Assembly: GCA_029972135.1 (NCBI GenBank)
Contig: CP124755.1
Coordinates: 2,351,991 to 2,415,990, forward strand
DNA from: Candidatus Thiocaldithrix dubininis
GTDB lineage: Bacteria > Pseudomonadota > Gammaproteobacteria > Thiotrichales > Thiotrichaceae
Direction of reading: 5' to 3'
Length of the DNA: 64,000 nt
Under the pieces are notes generated by a model. The model ran no database searches and had not been told where the DNA came from. It worked only from the letters and a program-made list of their open reading frames with translations. Below are positions 3,287-9,588 of the stretch, piece after piece. Position numbers and translations under genes: made by a program. Position 1 is the stretch's first letter. The number at the start of each line of letters is the position of its first letter.

Positions 3287-4708
3287 CTAAATCATATCTG
3301 CTGGACTACGTACACTGATACCGGGCGTATTCAACACATGGGTATAAATCATCGTTGTCGATACATCCGAATGTCCCAGTAATTCCTGAACGGTACGGAT
3401 GTCGTAACCGGATTCCAGCAAATGGGTAGCGAAGGAATGGCGGAAGGTGTGCGTGGTGGCATGTTTGGTGATCCCCGCTTGTTTCACCGCCCGCCGAATG
3501 ATTTTCTGCAAACTGGTTTCATGCAGATGATGGCGACGCACCACCCCAGAACGCGGGTCAGCAGCGACACCACTGGAAGGAAACACATATTGCCAGCGTA
3601 ATTCTTTCGCTGCATTTTGGTATTTTCTCCCCAAGGCATCGGGCAGATACACCTCGCCAAACCCGTTTTTTAAGTCCATTTGATGTTGACGCTCAACGAA
3701 GGCAATTTGTTGTTTGAGGGCATCTTTGAAACGTTCGGGCAGCGGCACAATCCGATCTTTAAAGCCCTTAGCATTGCGAATCAGCAATTGGTTGTAATCG
3801 AAATCCACATCCAGAATCCGCAGGGTCACGCACTCCATGAGACGCAAACCGCCACCGTAGAGCAAGCCCGTCATTAAATGATGCGTACCTTTCAGGTGTT
3901 GGAATACGCGGCGCACTTCATCACGGGACAGCACCACCGGCAATTTACGTGGGCGTTTTGAACCGATAAAGTCGCCCAAATCATCCAGCGGCTTTTTCCA
4001 GACTTGGTTAAACAGGAACGCAAGCGCATTTAATGCCTGCTTTTGGGTGGAAACTGAGACATTGCGTTTAAGCACAAGGTATTCGAGGTATTGTTTGACT
4101 TCTTTACCGCCCAAATCATGCACGTCGTTGGGTTTGTGGAAGTAAAAAAAGCGGGCAATCCAACCGCGATAGGTTTGTTCGGTGCGCATCGCGTAATTTT
4201 TGAGGCGCACGGCTTTGACTACTTCGGCTAAGGCTGGCTGATAACGTTGGTAAAGCTCATTGGAACAACGCTCTTCACCTTCGAGCATTTCTAGCCCTTC
4301 CAGACCATTGAGGGCATCGGTGTAATCACGAGCGACAGTAGCATGATTGGCATCCAATTTTTTCGCGGACGCTGACCAGTATTCCCAATCGAAATCATTT
4401 GCCCAACTTTTTTTCAATGCCAGACAAAACAGAATCCGTATAGCATCGACGACTTGCCCGAATTGCCACGCCTTCAAGTTAACTTCACGCCCTACTTTGG
4501 TGAGATATTCCTCTACTTGTTGGGTTGTATGAGTGCGTATATGATCGTCTGGAAAGTAGGCAATATACTGCTTGGTACGCAGCACATACCACGTCACATA
4601 TTTTTGACTAACCCCCTGTTTGACAAGGAAAAGCGTGTAATTTTTCCAGAACTCATGGGAATACGAGGTTGCCCGTGTTACGGGGCTTCGTGTATGCTTC
4701 TTATCCAT
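3287..4708 (-). CDS. intI: integron integrase IntI (tyrosine recombinase) with an N-terminal extension of about 150 aa
   Basis: The C-terminal ~320 aa align by eye with IntI1: LPDALGRKYQNAAKELRWQYVFP (IntI-specific insert), DPRSGVVRRHHLHE, HTFRHSFATHLLESGYDIRTVQELLGHSDVSTTMIYTHV. Confidence 0.92.
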   Translation of the reverse strand: MDKKHTRSPVTRATSYSHEFWKNYTLFLVKQGVSQKYVTWYVLRTKQYIAYFPDDHIRTHTTQQVEEYLTKVGREVNLKAWQFGQVVDAIRILFCLALKKSWANDFDWEYWSASAKKLDANHATVARDYTDALNGLEGLEMLEGEERCSNELYQRYQPALAEVVKAVRLKNYAMRTEQTYRGWIARFFYFHKPNDVHDLGGKEVKQYLEYLVLKRNVSVSTQKQALNALAFLFNQVWKKPLDDLGDFIGSKRPRKLPVVLSRDEVRRVFQHLKGTHHLMTGLLYGGGLRLMECVTLRILDVDFDYNQLLIRNAKGFKDRIVPLPERFKDALKQQIAFVERQHQMDLKNGFGEVYLPDALGRKYQNAAKELRWQYVFPSSGVAADPRSGVVRRHHLHETSLQKIIRRAVKQAGITKHATTHTFRHSFATHLLESGYDIRTVQELLGHSDVSTTMIYTHVLNTPGISVRSPADMI

Positions 4709-4838: not shown

Positions 4839-4857
4839 GCCTAATAAACTGTTAGGC
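4839..4857 (+). other. attI core (GCCTAAT-N5-G|TTAGGC)
   Basis: Inverted L/R boxes gcctaat ... gttaggc. G4851|T4852 is the inferred crossover, because TTAGGC is the reverse complement of the R'' box (GCCTAAC, 5265) of the first cassette. Confidence 0.6.
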
Positions 4858-5321
4858 CTTTTAAAAGCCGCTCTCCTGAATGTTCTCCATCTTTCAGCCA
4901 GTATCAAATCTATTGAGTTTTCGCTACCGTAGCTAATTCTGAATCCTTCGATATAGAATCACAGCATGCACCTTCCTCCTTGCAATCTATCGTCGTTAGC
5001 AACACCGCACTGCGGGGCGGGGTTACTTCATCGGCTATCCCGCCCGCAGGCTCTGTATTCCTTCGCGCCTCAATCACCTTCACTTTCTTCGACGTGTTGT
5101 TCTCCCTGCTGTCAGCGTAAAACCCTCCCTCCGAAAAACAGCCCCGCAGTGCTTCTCACTCCGGTCACAGTGTCAAGAACAACCTTCGCGTACCTCATAG
5201 GCAAAAAACCACTCCGGCAAAGTTCGCGCAGAACTCAAACTTCTGTCTTCTCGCAAGCACCTAGGCCTAACCCTTCGGTCGAGGGGACTCGCCGCAAGCG
5301 GCGAGCCCCTCACCTTGAACG
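4852..5321 (+). mobile_element. integron cassette 0 (ORF-less, GC-rich, pyrimidine-rich top strand)
   Basis: Starts with TTAGGC and ends with attC0. The only ORF (4966-5325) is low-complexity and reads through the attC. Confidence 0.65.
5265..5321 (+). repeat. attC0 (57 bp)
   Basis: R'' is GCCTAAC. An imperfect hairpin gaggggActcgcc-gcaa-ggcgagcccctc follows, and the site ends ...ccttgaacG at the crossover. Confidence 0.65.
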
Positions 5322-5508
5322 ATAGCGCAGAACCGCATACGCAGTTCTGCGCTATTGTATCGGAGTTGAGCTTCGCTCGAACGGGTTGCAGCCACCACGC
5401 TCCGCGTTCTGGCTATCAACCCATTCGAGTGGATACATTTGCGCCCATGAAGCGACTCTTCTAAAGAGTCACTTCATGGTCACAAACGCCCCACTCAACT
5501 CCGATACA
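5322..5508 (+). repeat. 187-bp structured ORF-less element, copy 1 (at the attC0 crossover)
   Basis: Base-identical to 6304-6490 and 8637-8823. It starts right after the attC terminal G and is followed by TTAGAC of the next cassette. Confidence 0.95.
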
Positions 5509-6218: not shown

Positions 6219-6303
6219 GTCTAACAAATCATTCGACGACGGACGCGGTGACAGCCCGCGTCTTCGTTTTATCTACTCCCCACCGCGCCCGTCAATTCAG
6301 ACG
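6219..6303 (+). repeat. attC1
   Basis: R'' is GTCTAAC. It has the conserved core tcgacgacggacgcggtgacagcccgcg ... ctactccccaccgcgcccgtca and ends cagacG. Confidence 0.85.
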
Positions 6304-6490
6304 ATAGCGCAGAACCGCATACGCAGTTCTGCGCTATTGTATCGGAGTTGAGCTTCGCTCGAACGGGTTGCAGCCACCACGCTCCGCGTTCTGGCTATCA
6401 ACCCATTCGAGTGGATACATTTGCGCCCATGAAGCGACTCTTCTAAAGAGTCACTTCATGGTCACAAACGCCCCACTCAACTCCGATACA
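6304..6490 (+). repeat. 187-bp structured ORF-less element, copy 2 (at the attC1 crossover)
   Basis: Identical to copy 1 and followed by TTAGCA of cassette 2. Confidence 0.95.
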
Positions 6491-6531: not shown

Positions 6532-7533
6532 ATGTTGTCTAAACTAGAAAAAATACCAGATATAAATGAAGAAGCTGTAGTTGTTTATGCCTATTTACAA
6601 ATGCTGGAAAAATGGCTCAGAGAAATGGTTTACGTTGAGCTAAAAGCAAAAAAAGGAAATAGCTGGTTTAATTTTCATAAAACAAAAAATACATATGATT
6701 CAGATAAAAAATATACGCATATGTCAACCCCAGAATCTAGCCCATTAAGTTATTTGTCTTTTGGTGAATTACAAAAGCTTATCAAAAATAATTGGGAGAT
6801 TTTTTCACCATACCTACCACCACAAAACATATGGGATGCAAAGCTAGAAGAAATAGATAACATTAGAAATAGAATAGCCCATTTCAGATCATTACATGAA
6901 CAAGATTTAAATAGAGTTTTACAATTTTTGCGAGACATAGATCAAGGTTTTTGGAGATTCTGCACAAGTTATAATGATTCTTTTACGGTTCTACCAGCAG
7001 ATAATGATTCAGTTACAAACAAATTTGCTGACCTTGATCCATTTTTCCCAAAACAAATAGATGAGAAGAGATGGGTTACTGTCGGACATGCACCTCCCGA
7101 TTTGTTATATATTGTATCTATTAGAGTAATCAGACGATTATGGTGCGACACCTCAGATAAGATAGAAGGCACACCTGGCTATTTATATGATTTAAACATT
7201 GTTATTAGAGGTCAACGCCAATATGACTACAAAAGATTTCTCAGTGCATCAAAAAAACTACACTCTAAATTTGTTCATATCTGTTTAGATCATCAATCAA
7301 ATAGTATTCGGATCACCATTCCTGCAAATTATGGGAGTGAAGAAGTTATTAATATAATAGAACAGCTAATCGAGATAACGGAACACACGATAATTCCAAG
7401 TCGAGGGATAGTCGATATTGATGATACTTCAGTTAAAAAACTAGCTGATGAATGGCCTGAGTATGTGTTAAGTCCAAAGAATCCTTTGACTTTTTTAGAT
7501 TCAGAGATGCCTTGTTCTTTTTTCAATGCATAA
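6532..7533 (+). CDS. HEPN-motif protein (Swt1/Abi-like N-terminal domain) with an unknown C-terminal domain
   Basis: 333 aa. LEEIDNIRNRIAHFRSL contains an Rx4H motif in a helical N-terminal region. The gene is AT-rich. Confidence 0.55.
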   Translation: MLSKLEKIPDINEEAVVVYAYLQMLEKWLREMVYVELKAKKGNSWFNFHKTKNTYDSDKKYTHMSTPESSPLSYLSFGELQKLIKNNWEIFSPYLPPQNIWDAKLEEIDNIRNRIAHFRSLHEQDLNRVLQFLRDIDQGFWRFCTSYNDSFTVLPADNDSVTNKFADLDPFFPKQIDEKRWVTVGHAPPDLLYIVSIRVIRRLWCDTSDKIEGTPGYLYDLNIVIRGQRQYDYKRFLSASKKLHSKFVHICLDHQSNSIRITIPANYGSEEVINIIEQLIEITEHTIIPSRGIVDIDDTSVKKLADEWPEYVLSPKNPLTFLDSEMPCSFFNA

Positions 7534-7535
7534 AA

Positions 7536-7620
7536 TGCTAACAATTATGTCGACGACGGACGCGGTGACAGCCCGCGAGTTCCAACAATCTACTCCCCGC
7601 CGCGCCCGTCACACATGACG
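7536..7620 (+). repeat. attC2 (the only junction not occupied by the 187-bp element)
   Basis: R'' is TGCTAAC. It has the same conserved core as attC1 and attC3, and it ends catgacG|TTAGCG. Confidence 0.85.
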
Positions 7621-7710
7621 TTAGCGCAACAGTGCGATTTATATTAGTTGAATCAACATATTATGTTTTTTAAAAAAGTTTAAAGTATAAAAATAAATAT
7701 AGGAAAAATA

Positions 7711-8552: not shown

Positions 8553-8636
8553 GGCTAACGAGCAGCTCGACGACGGACGCGGTGACAGCCCGCGATTTTT
8601 AATTTCTACTCCCCGCCGCGCCCGTCAGCCATGACG
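8553..8636 (+). repeat. attC3
   Basis: R'' is GGCTAAC. It has the conserved core tcgacgacggacgcggtgacagcccgcg ... ctactccccgccgcgcccgtca and ends catgacG. Confidence 0.85.
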
Positions 8637-8823
8637 ATAGCGCAGAACCGCATACGCAGTTCTGCGCTATTGTATCGGAGTTGAGCTTCGCTCGAACGGG
8701 TTGCAGCCACCACGCTCCGCGTTCTGGCTATCAACCCATTCGAGTGGATACATTTGCGCCCATGAAGCGACTCTTCTAAAGAGTCACTTCATGGTCACAA
8801 ACGCCCCACTCAACTCCGATACA
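8637..8823 (+). repeat. 187-bp structured ORF-less element, copy 3 (at the attC3 crossover)
   Basis: Identical to copies 1 and 2 and followed by TTAGAC. Confidence 0.95.
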
Positions 8824-8876: not shown

Positions 8877-8921
8877 CGATTTAATGTCATTGGCTGTTCC
8901 CTTAAGTCAAAAGATTTAAAC

Positions 8922-9179
8922 ATGCCAAGAACAACCCTAGTCACTCGGATAGAAGTTGATCTGAAAAATCAACTGGGTGAAATTGCAAAGCAGCAGAACC
9001 GTACCACCAGCAATCTTATTGAATGGTTAGTCAAGCAGTACATTGGGCAGGTCGCCAAACCCACCAACAGCACAGCACCAGTGGAGCTTGATTTTGCATC
9101 GACAGACGACCTGCACAGCGTCCTAGCCAAGCGGCGCCCCGCCATTGCCGACACCCTCCGCTATTTAGAGGACAAATGA
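8922..9179 (+). CDS. ribbon-helix-helix (CopG/Arc-like) antitoxin
   Basis: 85 aa. The N-terminus PRTTLVTRIEVDLKNQLGEIAKQQNRTTSNLIEWLVKQY fits an RHH strand-helix-helix pattern. Its stop overlaps the next ATG (ATGA). Confidence 0.6.
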   Translation: MPRTTLVTRIEVDLKNQLGEIAKQQNRTTSNLIEWLVKQYIGQVAKPTNSTAPVELDFASTDDLHSVLAKRRPAIADTLRYLEDK

Positions 9180-9349
9180 GACTGCTGTCCACTGTGGATG
9201 TCATCCACATCCACGATACTGTTATTCACCCCCATGAGTTGCAGGGGCAAGCGCCAGACAAATCGGTGGAAGCTGTTATTACACGAGTACGAAACCGTTT
9301 TGAATACGGACTGATACCCGATGCGTTCGCGCTTGCCGCCTGTTACTGA
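9176..9349 (+). pseudogene. truncated Doc/Fic-family toxin (N-terminal 57 codons only)
   Basis: MRLLSTVDVIHIHDTVIHPHELQGQAPDKSVEAVITRVRNRFEYGLIPDAFALAACY aligns by eye with the P1 Doc N-terminus. It stops before the HxFxxxNKR Fic motif. Confidence 0.55.
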
Positions 9350-9554
9350 AGCCAGAAAAAATTTCGCCTCAGTGTTGGAAACAGCAAAGCAAGAAGGGAT
9401 TACTTGCATTTATAAACGCAATGGAGAAGCTTATTATCTTACTCCCGCAAAAACCCAAAAATCTCCGTTAGATGTGGAAGGTATAGACTTACGTCTTTCA
9501 TGCAGTCAGATTATGTCTATTCTGAGCAAAAGCAGAGAAAGAACTTACTTTTAG
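9321..9554 (+). CDS. Phd/YefM-like antitoxin with no cognate toxin
   Basis: VTEARKNFASVLETAKQEGITCIYKRNGEAYYLTP matches the Phd/YefM N-terminal pattern. Its start overlaps the Doc fragment in another frame. Confidence 0.45.
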   Translation: MRSRLPPVTEARKNFASVLETAKQEGITCIYKRNGEAYYLTPAKTQKSPLDVEGIDLRLSCSQIMSILSKSRERTYF

Positions 9555-9588
9555 TTCATTTAGCTCGCTGCCCAATTAAAAATCAGCC

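Follow-up and report, generated by a model that had tools for sequence, protein, structure and literature searches.

In integron cassettes, the attC sites used for recombination are usually about 57–141 nucleotides (nt) long, and the tools that detect them are understood to be built around a GTT/AAC triplet, extrahelical bases and an unpaired spacer, which are regarded as what defines such sites. All three, the last as an unpaired central spacer, are among the conserved features described for attC (PMC12614218), and natural sites have been reported to conserve the GTT triplet absolutely (Frumerie et al. 2010; PMC2811028). Here we describe a gene-less element of 187 nt that is present in three copies in the chromosomal integron of Candidatus Thiocaldithrix dubininis, a Thiothrix-like gammaproteobacterium, and that has none of the three. 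The stretch of DNA analysed, referred to as the window, comprises 64,000 nt (assembly GCA_029972135.1, contig CP124755.1, positions 2,351,991 to 2,415,990); coordinates given without a contig are those of the window. On the evidence of sequence comparison we consider it likely, with a probability of about 0.65, that the element is a cargo-less cassette, a 187-nt attC-like module that would be moved by the resident integron integrase, IntI, and would have multiplied as a selfish passenger.

Other elements are known that make use of host recombination or of attC sites. The CTX-phi-type integrative mobile elements exploiting Xer (IMEX) have no recombinase, and their folded single strand gives a duplex-like site to a tyrosine recombinase of the host. 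One strand is exchanged, replication resolves the junction, and the hybrid sites favour retention. The members of the IS1111-attC group (ISKpn4, ISPst6 and ISPa25) are full insertion sequences of ~1.2–1.5 kb. They have a DEDD transposase and a seekRNA of 82–96 nt, and recognize one end of certain attCs by base pairing (PMC11187229). Group IIC-attC introns, which contain ribozyme domains and a reverse-transcriptase open reading frame (ORF), are inserted in the bottom strand, opposite to cassettes (PMC3001079). In addition, gene-less cassettes that bear promoters have been documented in the integrons of Vibrio and Treponema (PMC11014356).

The effects of changes in the triplet have been described for IntI1. 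Sites with G1→A1 and T2→A2 changes are cleaved in vitro, GAT is a preferred secondary site, and an attC with T2→A2 and its complement recombines with a wild-type partner at or above the wild-type level (PMC2811028). A site that is non-complementary at position 2 (GTT against ATC) recombines at 6e-6, compared with 2.2e-3 for the wild type, and a change at position 1 in one partner alone costs 10^3- to 10^4-fold (PMC2811028). Is the 187-nt element a cassette moved by the integrase, a cassette retained for a signal in its fold, or a parasite of attC sites that depends on some other enzyme?

Copies of the element and their insertion points

The element contains no ORF and is found on the forward strand at 5322–5508 (copy 1), 6304–6490 (copy 2) and 8637–8823 (copy 3). 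The three copies are 100% identical, a point absent from the earlier sequence-only reading, an annotation of this DNA made from its letters. Every copy sits between the G and the TT of the R' box of an attC, in the same orientation. Copy 1 splits the R' box of the attC of cassette 1 (5265–5321, forward strand) after G5321. Copy 2 splits a Thiothrix-type attC (6219–6303, forward) after G6303 and is followed by a cassette beginning TTAGCA, and copy 3 splits a further attC (8553–8636, forward) after G8636 and is followed by the terminal cassette, TTAGACTAAC.... The fourth attC of the array (7536–7626, forward) is unoccupied, with its crossover, marked here and below by an arrow, at G↓TTAGCG between 7620 and 7621. 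The empty site cited in the sequence-only reading, ACGTTAGCGCA (ACG↓TTAGCGCA), was located here, at 7618–7628. Three of the four attCs hold the element and the occupied sites are of two unrelated types; the attCs at 6219–6303, 7536–7626 and 8553–8636 form one family of ~85–90 nt each. After removal of the copies the window contains 128 GTTAG sites. All three insertions are within the five integron sites, and for 3/3 copies in 5/128 sites P is ~3e-5 under random site use.

The boundaries of the element are base-exact by comparison with unoccupied sites, namely the attC at 7536–7626, the attI (window against metagenome contig L012) and the terminal cassette (window against contig L005). In the window the attI core (4839–4857, forward) is composed of an L box GCCTAAT, a 5-bp spacer (AAACT) and an R box G↓TTAGGC, and sequence and comparison of samples place its crossover between 4851 and 4852. 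In L012, which encodes a 100% identical IntI, the element comes straight after the attI G (...AATAAACTG↓ATAGCGCAGAAC, i.e. ↓ATAGCG). In a further seven contigs that encode this IntI the sequence is ...AAACTG↓TTAGG, with four different first cassettes where the contig extends; that of the window is a fifth. The terminal cassette TTAGACTAAC... is directly behind an attC in L005, without the element, and behind copy 3 in the window. Both ends of the element lie at the integrase crossover G↓TT of attI or attC and its position is that of a member of the array, as expected of a cassette. Including the two relatives described below, the orientation is the same in 6/6 insertions (three in the window, L012, Thiothrix nivea and L107). 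Many metagenome contigs break off inside the element, as would be expected of a repeat. The junction of a circular form would read ...CCGATACA↓ATAGCGCAG..., and TCGGAGTTGAGCTTCGCTCG and CTGGCTATCAACCC are k-mers of the element family.

A separate observation concerns L005, where the last attC before the terminal cassette (L005:505–520, reverse strand) reads ...GAGGCT↓TTAGACTAAC, with a T replacing the canonical G before TT. This is a further non-canonical first position at the end of an array.

Fold and layout of the element

The pairings proposed in the sequence-only reading were reproduced by script. Element positions 1–12 are the exact reverse complement of 23–34, positions 35–49 are that of 173–187, and the joined ends (173–187 followed by 1–12) are that of 23–49, which gives a helix of 27 bp. 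The same 27 bp are also present as ordinary duplex at 23–49 of the integrated element. Positions 1–34 (5322–5355, forward, as are all parts of copy 1 listed here) form hairpin C, with the R-type box ATAGCGC(AGAAC)/(GTTCT)GCGCTAT and a 10-nt loop. Its first 12 nt complement the internal R''-type box at 12/12 nt, so that the circular permutation rule of cassettes is obeyed, as had been claimed, in the same way as by the real cassettes of the array. The 5' arm of stem P1 (35–49; 5356–5370) starts with the variable spacer TGTATC, which is 6 nt long and lies immediately 3' of the position equivalent to the crossover, followed by an invariant L''-type box, GGAGTTGAG. The 3' arm (173–187; 5494–5508) comprises the L'-type box CTCAACTCC and the spacer GATACA, and its last base, A187, occupies the place of the canonical G.

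The far end of the 27-bp helix is closed by a 123-nt domain of two hairpins. Hairpin B (54–108; 5375–5429) reads CTCGAA(T/C)...GTTCGAG on the bottom strand, and hairpin A (110–171; 5431–5492) is a long stem with four compensated pairs. The helix 55–64/99–108 and the hairpin at 125–157, each with the one C-A mismatch reported for it, were likewise recovered by script. In the circular form the bottom strand would read 5'-GCGCTAT↓N-spacer-GGAGTTGAG-[123-nt two-hairpin domain]-CTCAACTCC-spacer-N-ATAGCGC-3', an order that is the canonical R'-L'-terminal structure-L''-R''. The whole attC-like site covers ~166–177 nt, leaving 10–27 nt of the element outside it, and the sole 'cargo' is the 10-nt loop with 5 extra bp beyond the R box. 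The sequence-only reading had also identified GTTGAGC (44–50) and ACTCAAC (172–178) as consensus-perfect R' and R'' boxes. Both sequences are present as stated, but they hold the L'' and L' positions, and a junction is therefore not expected there.

Hairpin B (5375–5429) is itself attC-like on the bottom strand, having inner GGGTTG/CAACCC boxes and a GCTATC motif that resembles the R box of the element. This hints at an origin of the element from nested or fused attC sites.

Folding of both strands as single-stranded DNA and as RNA, a check that the sequence-only reading had proposed, revealed structure far beyond chance. As DNA, the window element folds at -62.0 kcal/mol on the top strand (z = -12.9) and -75.5 kcal/mol on the bottom strand (z = -16.7), and 0/200 shuffles matched its fold energy. 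Folded as RNA, the top and bottom strands give -105 and -129 kcal/mol (z = -14 and -16). The bottom strand is the better folding one in all three variants of the family (bottom/top DNA folds of -75.5/-62.0, -75.8/-63.0 and -79.9/-64.7 kcal/mol), by 13–15 kcal/mol. The variants have six G-T pairs on the bottom strand and 0–1 on the top, where C-A mismatches are found in their place. Because the C-A mismatches of the top strand are G-T wobbles on the bottom strand, the latter is marked as the selected fold. Cumulative GC skew declines across the window, which by the usual rule suggests that the bottom strand is the lagging-strand template, as expected for attC bottom strands.

Relatives and covariation

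Three variants of the family were compared, those of the window, of T. nivea and of L107. The homologue in T. nivea DSM 5205 (L105:2566–2752), found via the DNA around IntI homologues, is 187 nt long with 81.5% identity. It is inserted in an attC as ...GCTATGACG↓ATAGCG (...ATGACG↓ATAGCG), unoccupied relatives of which read ...ACG↓TTA or ...ACG↓TTG. L107, a 1-kb metagenome contig found with a two-arm pattern taken from the conserved boxes, carries a variant with five differences from that of the window. Its flanks are ...TCATTCTG↓ATAGCG...GAGACG↓TTAGCATT, and the left flank is neither attC nor attI. On one side of this copy a truA-like ORF ends, and on the other is a 174-aa ORF (L107:1–231 and 419–1061) whose ATG is 29 nt downstream of the element. 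Judged by its flanks, the insertion looks like use of a secondary GTTAGCA site, and could be the trace of an insertion by the integrase at a secondary site in the genome (attG-like), outside any recognisable integron.

In L107 and in T. nivea the element ends in G, which gives G↓AT as the junction triplet and ATC on the other arm. The trait of the family is therefore the T2→A2 change. The A↓AT/ATT of the window is derived from it by a change from G:C to A:T at pair 35:187, the first position having gone from G to A and position 35, in compensation, from C to T. Of the AAT/ATT core described in the sequence-only reading, its non-canonical nature stands; it is specific to this lineage and not a trait of the family.

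The paired segments, whose conservation the sequence-only reading had suggested examining in homologues, are conserved by compensation in the three variants. The 6-bp spacers are all different and always perfectly compensated (TGTATC/GATACA, CGTCTC/GAGACG and CGCGTC/GACGCG). In the comparison of the window with L107, 4/5 differences belong to two spacer pairs that are compensated. The sequence of the L box (GGAGTTGAG/CTCAACTCC) does not vary, and that of the hairpin C stem varies only in T. nivea, where a single substitution leaves a G-T wobble. The fold comprises 81 pairs, and over the three variants 98.3% of cells are paired. Two-sided changes occur in eight pairs, compared with 1–2 in slid controls, and three of the eight are in the spacer beside the crossover; the covariation score is 0.198, compared with 0.03–0.08 in the controls.

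Further relatives were sought in several collections. An exact 20-mer over the junction box had 0 matches among genome contigs and 0 among metagenome contigs, the two-arm pattern found L107 alone among metagenome contigs and nothing among viral contigs, and blastn at a distant setting found no match among plasmids and phages. The integron loci screened numbered 86 (80 found via IntI relatives at up to 52% identity and six closer ones of the Thiothrix type), ~1.1 Mb in total. Over these, blastn and a covariance model built on the three variants yielded no member of the family other than those of T. nivea and L107.

Comparison with the canonical attC

How does the site of the element compare with an attC? 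The imperfect palindrome R''-L''...L'-R' is present, with GCGCTAT/ATAGCGC as R box and GGAGTTGAG/CTCAACTCC as L box, the two putative integrase-binding boxes, and the bottom strand is the better folding one. The canonical triplet 5'-AAC-3'/5'-GTT-3' is absent, being ATT/AAT in the window and ATC/GAT in L107 and T. nivea. There are no extrahelical bases on the bottom strand, since the 27-bp helix is perfectly paired in all variants, whereas the host attC at 5265–5321 folds with the usual T and G bulges. Nor is there an unpaired central spacer; the spacer is fully paired and its pairing has been kept by compensation. At ~166–177 nt the site is also beyond the usual range of canonical attC length. 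In the absence of the triplet, the extrahelical bases and the unpaired spacer, we class the element as a cassette with an attC-like site and not as a canonical attC. As a perfect duplex, the helix resembles the core of a double-stranded attI-type site presented on single-stranded DNA.

The integron of the window

The window carries a chromosomal integron consisting of intI, attI and ~5 cassettes, adjoined by cbbQ and a RuBisCO large-subunit gene. The integrase gene (3287–4708, reverse strand) encodes 473 aa with the Pfam domains PF13495 and PF00589. The product scores 438.6 bits against the NCBIfam model TIGR02249 'integron integrase' (cutoff 265), a model that spans only residues 160–472, the catalytic part. 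The N-terminal extension of ~155 aa (residues 1–159) is also present in a large clade of integron integrases of 460–490 aa, and the T. nivea protein is annotated as a TetR-family regulator. An identical protein is encoded on 19 metagenome contigs, and the nearest named relatives are those of T. nivea (79%) and Thiolinea (75%). In a locus with an 85% identical integrase (L004:4475–5753), ORFs of an IS91-type Y2 transposase adjoin intI and a DDE transposase is found further along.

The attI core, GCCTAAT-AAACT-G↓TTAGGC, lies upstream of intI and is followed by cassette 1 (4852–5321, forward), which ends in a 57-nt attC with the R'' box GCCTAAC. The four ordinary cassettes checked begin with the complement of their own R'' (TTAGGC/GCCTAA, TTAGAC/GTCTAA and TTAGCA/TGCTAA); the cassette after copy 2, for example, begins TTAGCA and has the R'' box TGCTAAC. 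Among samples with a 100% identical integrase (the window and L005–L014), at least five different first cassettes are found at the same attI crossover (4851↓4852 of the window), which indicates that the integron is active and turns over rapidly in the population.

The cargo includes a Swt1-like HEPN protein (6532–7533) and, in the toxin-antitoxin-like terminal cassette at the end of the array, an RHH/PhdYeFM-like pair (8920–9560). This is the defence or toxin-antitoxin content usual in chromosomal integrons. The GC-rich cassette 1 contains an ORF of 119 aa (4966–5325, forward) that crosses the attC and whose TAG stop is supplied by the element's first bases; Pfam gives no match for this ORF, which probably does not represent a gene. 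Cassette 1 (4852–5261) was also considered as a second structured element and rejected, its fold being unexceptional (z = -1.4). An ORF of 61 aa downstream of copy 1 returned no record on look-up.

Discussion

The view that IntI handles the element as a cassette follows from its position at the scissile bond in attI and attC, its single orientation, its permutation and the selection on its bottom-strand fold. A bona fide IntI is encoded next to the copies in the array. The sequence-only reading had offered three hypotheses. That of an empty cassette consisting almost entirely of an aberrant attC of ~160 nt is the best supported, by insertion in both attI and attC, constant orientation and bottom-strand bias. 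Nothing was found in support of the other two, a non-coding RNA carried as cargo and a miniature element moved by a different mechanism.

We infer that movement involves catalysis by the integrase, a circular intermediate and a ratchet. On the bottom strand of the excised circle, the R-type box GCGCTAT↓N, the 6-bp spacer and the L-type box GGAGTTGAG would form a single 27-bp helix. This would have the 10-nt loop at one end and at the other the 123-nt two-hairpin domain, in place of the variable terminal structure of an attC. IntI would cut the bottom strand after ...CTAT, where the canonical cut is ...YAA↓C, and the cut strand would be exchanged with attI, attC or an occasional secondary GTT site cleaved at AA↓C. 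The junction would then be resolved by replication. Exchange of CTAT↓T with a CTAA↓C partner gives the observed G↓ATAGCG and ACA↓TTAG, and a cut shifted by one base either way fails to do so. We also considered a canonical G↓TT crossover at another point of the element, with GTTCTGC at 23 or GTTGAGC at 44, and rejected both, as either would give a linear permutation other than the one found at all six sites.

A circle with GAT/ATC should integrate well, and both of the resulting hybrid sites would be mismatched at position 2 of the triplet, the host attC being left with GAT facing its own AAC and the site of the element with GTT facing its own ATC. The host-attC hybrid corresponds, on the bottom strand, to the non-complementary construct tested with IntI1, so that lowered recombination would be expected (~370-fold in IntI1). 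The position-2 mismatch would make insertion easier than excision, as in a ratchet, and would stabilise upstream or neighbouring cassettes. The presence of three copies in a five-site array is consistent with this.

Several points weigh against this interpretation. The circular form and the action of IntI are deduced from comparison, and the covariation is based on few events, there being just three sequence variants. The family is absent from the ~1.1 Mb of other integron loci and from the plasmid, phage and viral collections searched. Its R-spacer-L helix is without the extrahelical bases and the unpaired central spacer, both regarded as needed for efficient strand-specific recombination (PMC12614218) and both present in host attCs of the array. 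The triplet of the window element starts with A and those of all its partners with G, a one-sided heterology that with IntI1 costs 10^3- to 10^4-fold (PMC2811028). Identical A-type copies are nonetheless present at four sites, three attCs and the attI of L012. Their spread could possibly be accounted for by an integrase that is more tolerant, by gene conversion that homogenises the copies or by the retention of rare events.

The engineered triplet sites of the IntI1 study are a close counterpart, in that GAT/ATC and AAT-type sites are cleaved by IntI1 (PMC2811028). They differ in being laboratory mutants of attCaadA7 and the Vibrio cholerae repeat (VCR), whereas here a natural family carries the change, and the one-sided G1→A1 of the window element was strongly deleterious there. 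The IMEX elements too are small, lack a recombinase and use a folded-strand site of the kind proposed here, yet they use XerCD at dif, whereas this element would use IntI at attI and attC and has no genes or replication function. Mimicry of an XerCD/dif site was considered on account of TGTAT beside GCGC and rejected, as by eye there is no match to the XerD arm and the insertion sites are not dif.

A more specific proposal, which we put forward tentatively and consider possible rather than probable, is that the element is a natural 'selfish attC': a hyper-stable, fully paired site with a shifted triplet (GAT, then AAT) that ratchets into arrays and locks the flanking cassettes. It would be served by an integrase clade able to recombine a duplex-like hairpin, so that it would act as a mimic of attI on single-stranded DNA. 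If true, insertion at non-integron GTT sites such as that in L107 would be explained, and new cassette-acceptor sites could be seeded there.

The element might instead be a functional non-coding cassette, moved by IntI and kept for an RNA or DNA signal in its interior or in the whole fold. It could possibly be an RNase III-type processing site or stabiliser in a polycistronic transcript, a transcriptional insulator or a platform for protein binding. Known gene-less cassettes share with it bounds at the integrase crossover, a single orientation, a 5' end complementary to their own R'' and the lack of an ORF, and, together with attC, R and L boxes flanking a spacer, a variable terminal structure (in the element probably the 123-nt domain) and a better-folding bottom strand. 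It differs from them in being nearly cargo-less and in several copies in one short array. Regulatory, promoter-bearing examples are known in Vibrio and Treponema (PMC11014356), and either strand of the element folds with extreme stability as RNA. The interior hairpins are conserved through compensation and the element is consistently just upstream of the ORF of the next cassette. Conservation of the fold cannot separate these two readings, because an attC-like site needs it anyway. The described gene-less cassettes were characterised as promoters (PMC11014356), whereas a scan for promoters and terminators predicted neither a sigma-70-like promoter nor an intrinsic terminator inside the element. 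Rfam 15, searched with the window, L107 and L012, gave nothing at gathering score except tRNAs elsewhere; at permissive E-values only weak matches to microRNA precursors appeared (~21 bits against gathering scores of 130–180), and the window had no match of attC type. That the sequence-only reading did not recognise any Rfam-type family in the element agrees with these searches. The better-folding strand is moreover antisense to cassette transcription, and no outside promoter could serve a bottom-strand RNA since the element is inserted in unrelated contexts. We regard a function of this kind as unlikely.

Less probable again is a non-autonomous element that parasitises attC through another enzyme, either a DEDD transposase of the IS1111-attC type with a seekRNA or bridge RNA, or a Y1 transposase (IS200/IS605-type) targeting CTAA↓ on the bottom strand. 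Both IS1111-attC elements (PMC11187229) and group IIC-attC introns (PMC3001079) target attC, insertion of the element is strand-specific without target duplication, and the array of a Thiolinea contains three intron reverse-transcriptase genes. The bottom-strand CTAT end beside the CTAA target recalls the way in which the target and right-end tetranucleotides of IS200/IS605 pair, and the internal 27-nt segment complementary to the joined ends is loosely like a donor-binding guide. Like the element, the IS1111-attC group occupies cassette recombination sites in one orientation without target duplication. Unlike that group, it is only 187 nt long and geneless, and is also inserted in attI and in an unrelated attC type, exactly at the IntI cleavage point. 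With attI, two unrelated attC types and the GTTAGCA secondary site as targets, all that is shared is G↓TTAG, too little for RNA guiding, and by eye no segment of the element is complementary to its targets. An IS1111-attC or IS110-type element, or a miniature of one, is unlikely on account of these targets and the lack of an ORF in 187 nt. A palindrome-associated transposable element (PATE) derived from IS200/IS605 is unlikely as well, as the two end hairpins are unrelated and terminal, not similar and subterminal, and a CTAA-targeting transposase would not restrict 3/3 copies to 5/128 sites. Ten ORFs of the window, those around the integron, were compared with Pfam and none of them encodes a transposase, and the open frame across the element, translated and searched for miscalled proteins, had no homologue. 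Group IIC-attC introns are likewise structured nucleic-acid parasites of attC sites, but the element is about ten times smaller and Rfam finds no group II signature in it.

What look like such introns do parasitise the same kind of array in a Thiolinea sp. metagenome-assembled genome (GCA_041395485.1; integrase 75%). There, three ORFs of 442 aa with RVT_1 and GIIM domains (L109:997–8041) are found, one after each cassette and in opposite orientation.

Least probable of all is that the element has lost its mobility or never had any of its own, having spread with flanking attC by homologous recombination or gene conversion, or with A↓AT as an immobilised remnant of a formerly active G↓AT element. 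Gene conversion would suit the 100% identical copies 1–2.3 kb apart, and A↓AT with G↓TT should be a very poor pair to judge from IntI1 (PMC2811028). Against this, every breakpoint falls to the base at the crossover, and from copy to copy the left and the right flank are both different (an attC of 57 nt, two different attCs of ~85 nt of the Thiothrix type, the attI of L012 and the downstream cassettes), junctions that homologous recombination cannot make. The presence of the element at attI in one sample and of cassettes there in others also indicates that the A↓AT variant itself has moved recently.

Conclusions

The observations are best explained by an element family, present in Thiothrix integrons, with a natural non-canonical crossover triplet and a fully paired site. 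Full-text searches of the literature for Thiothrix integrons and for empty, non-coding or ORF-less cassettes gave, in the part of the matching texts covered, no earlier account of an element of this kind, and we know of no natural case in which the cleavage triplet has departed from the canonical one. Should this prove to be an ordinary gene-less cassette whose site is slightly odd, the practical lesson would be confined to annotation. If the element is instead a cargo-less cassette moved by IntI, then conservation of the triplet would reflect cross-compatibility and not chemistry, as the mutagenesis with IntI1 predicted, and the family would be a natural test case for what determines the choice of strand and orientation. 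It would also represent an unrecognised class of integron parasite, which can freeze neighbouring cassettes and fragments metagenome assemblies of arrays, and such parasites would probably have been overlooked by tools that expect canonical attC features.

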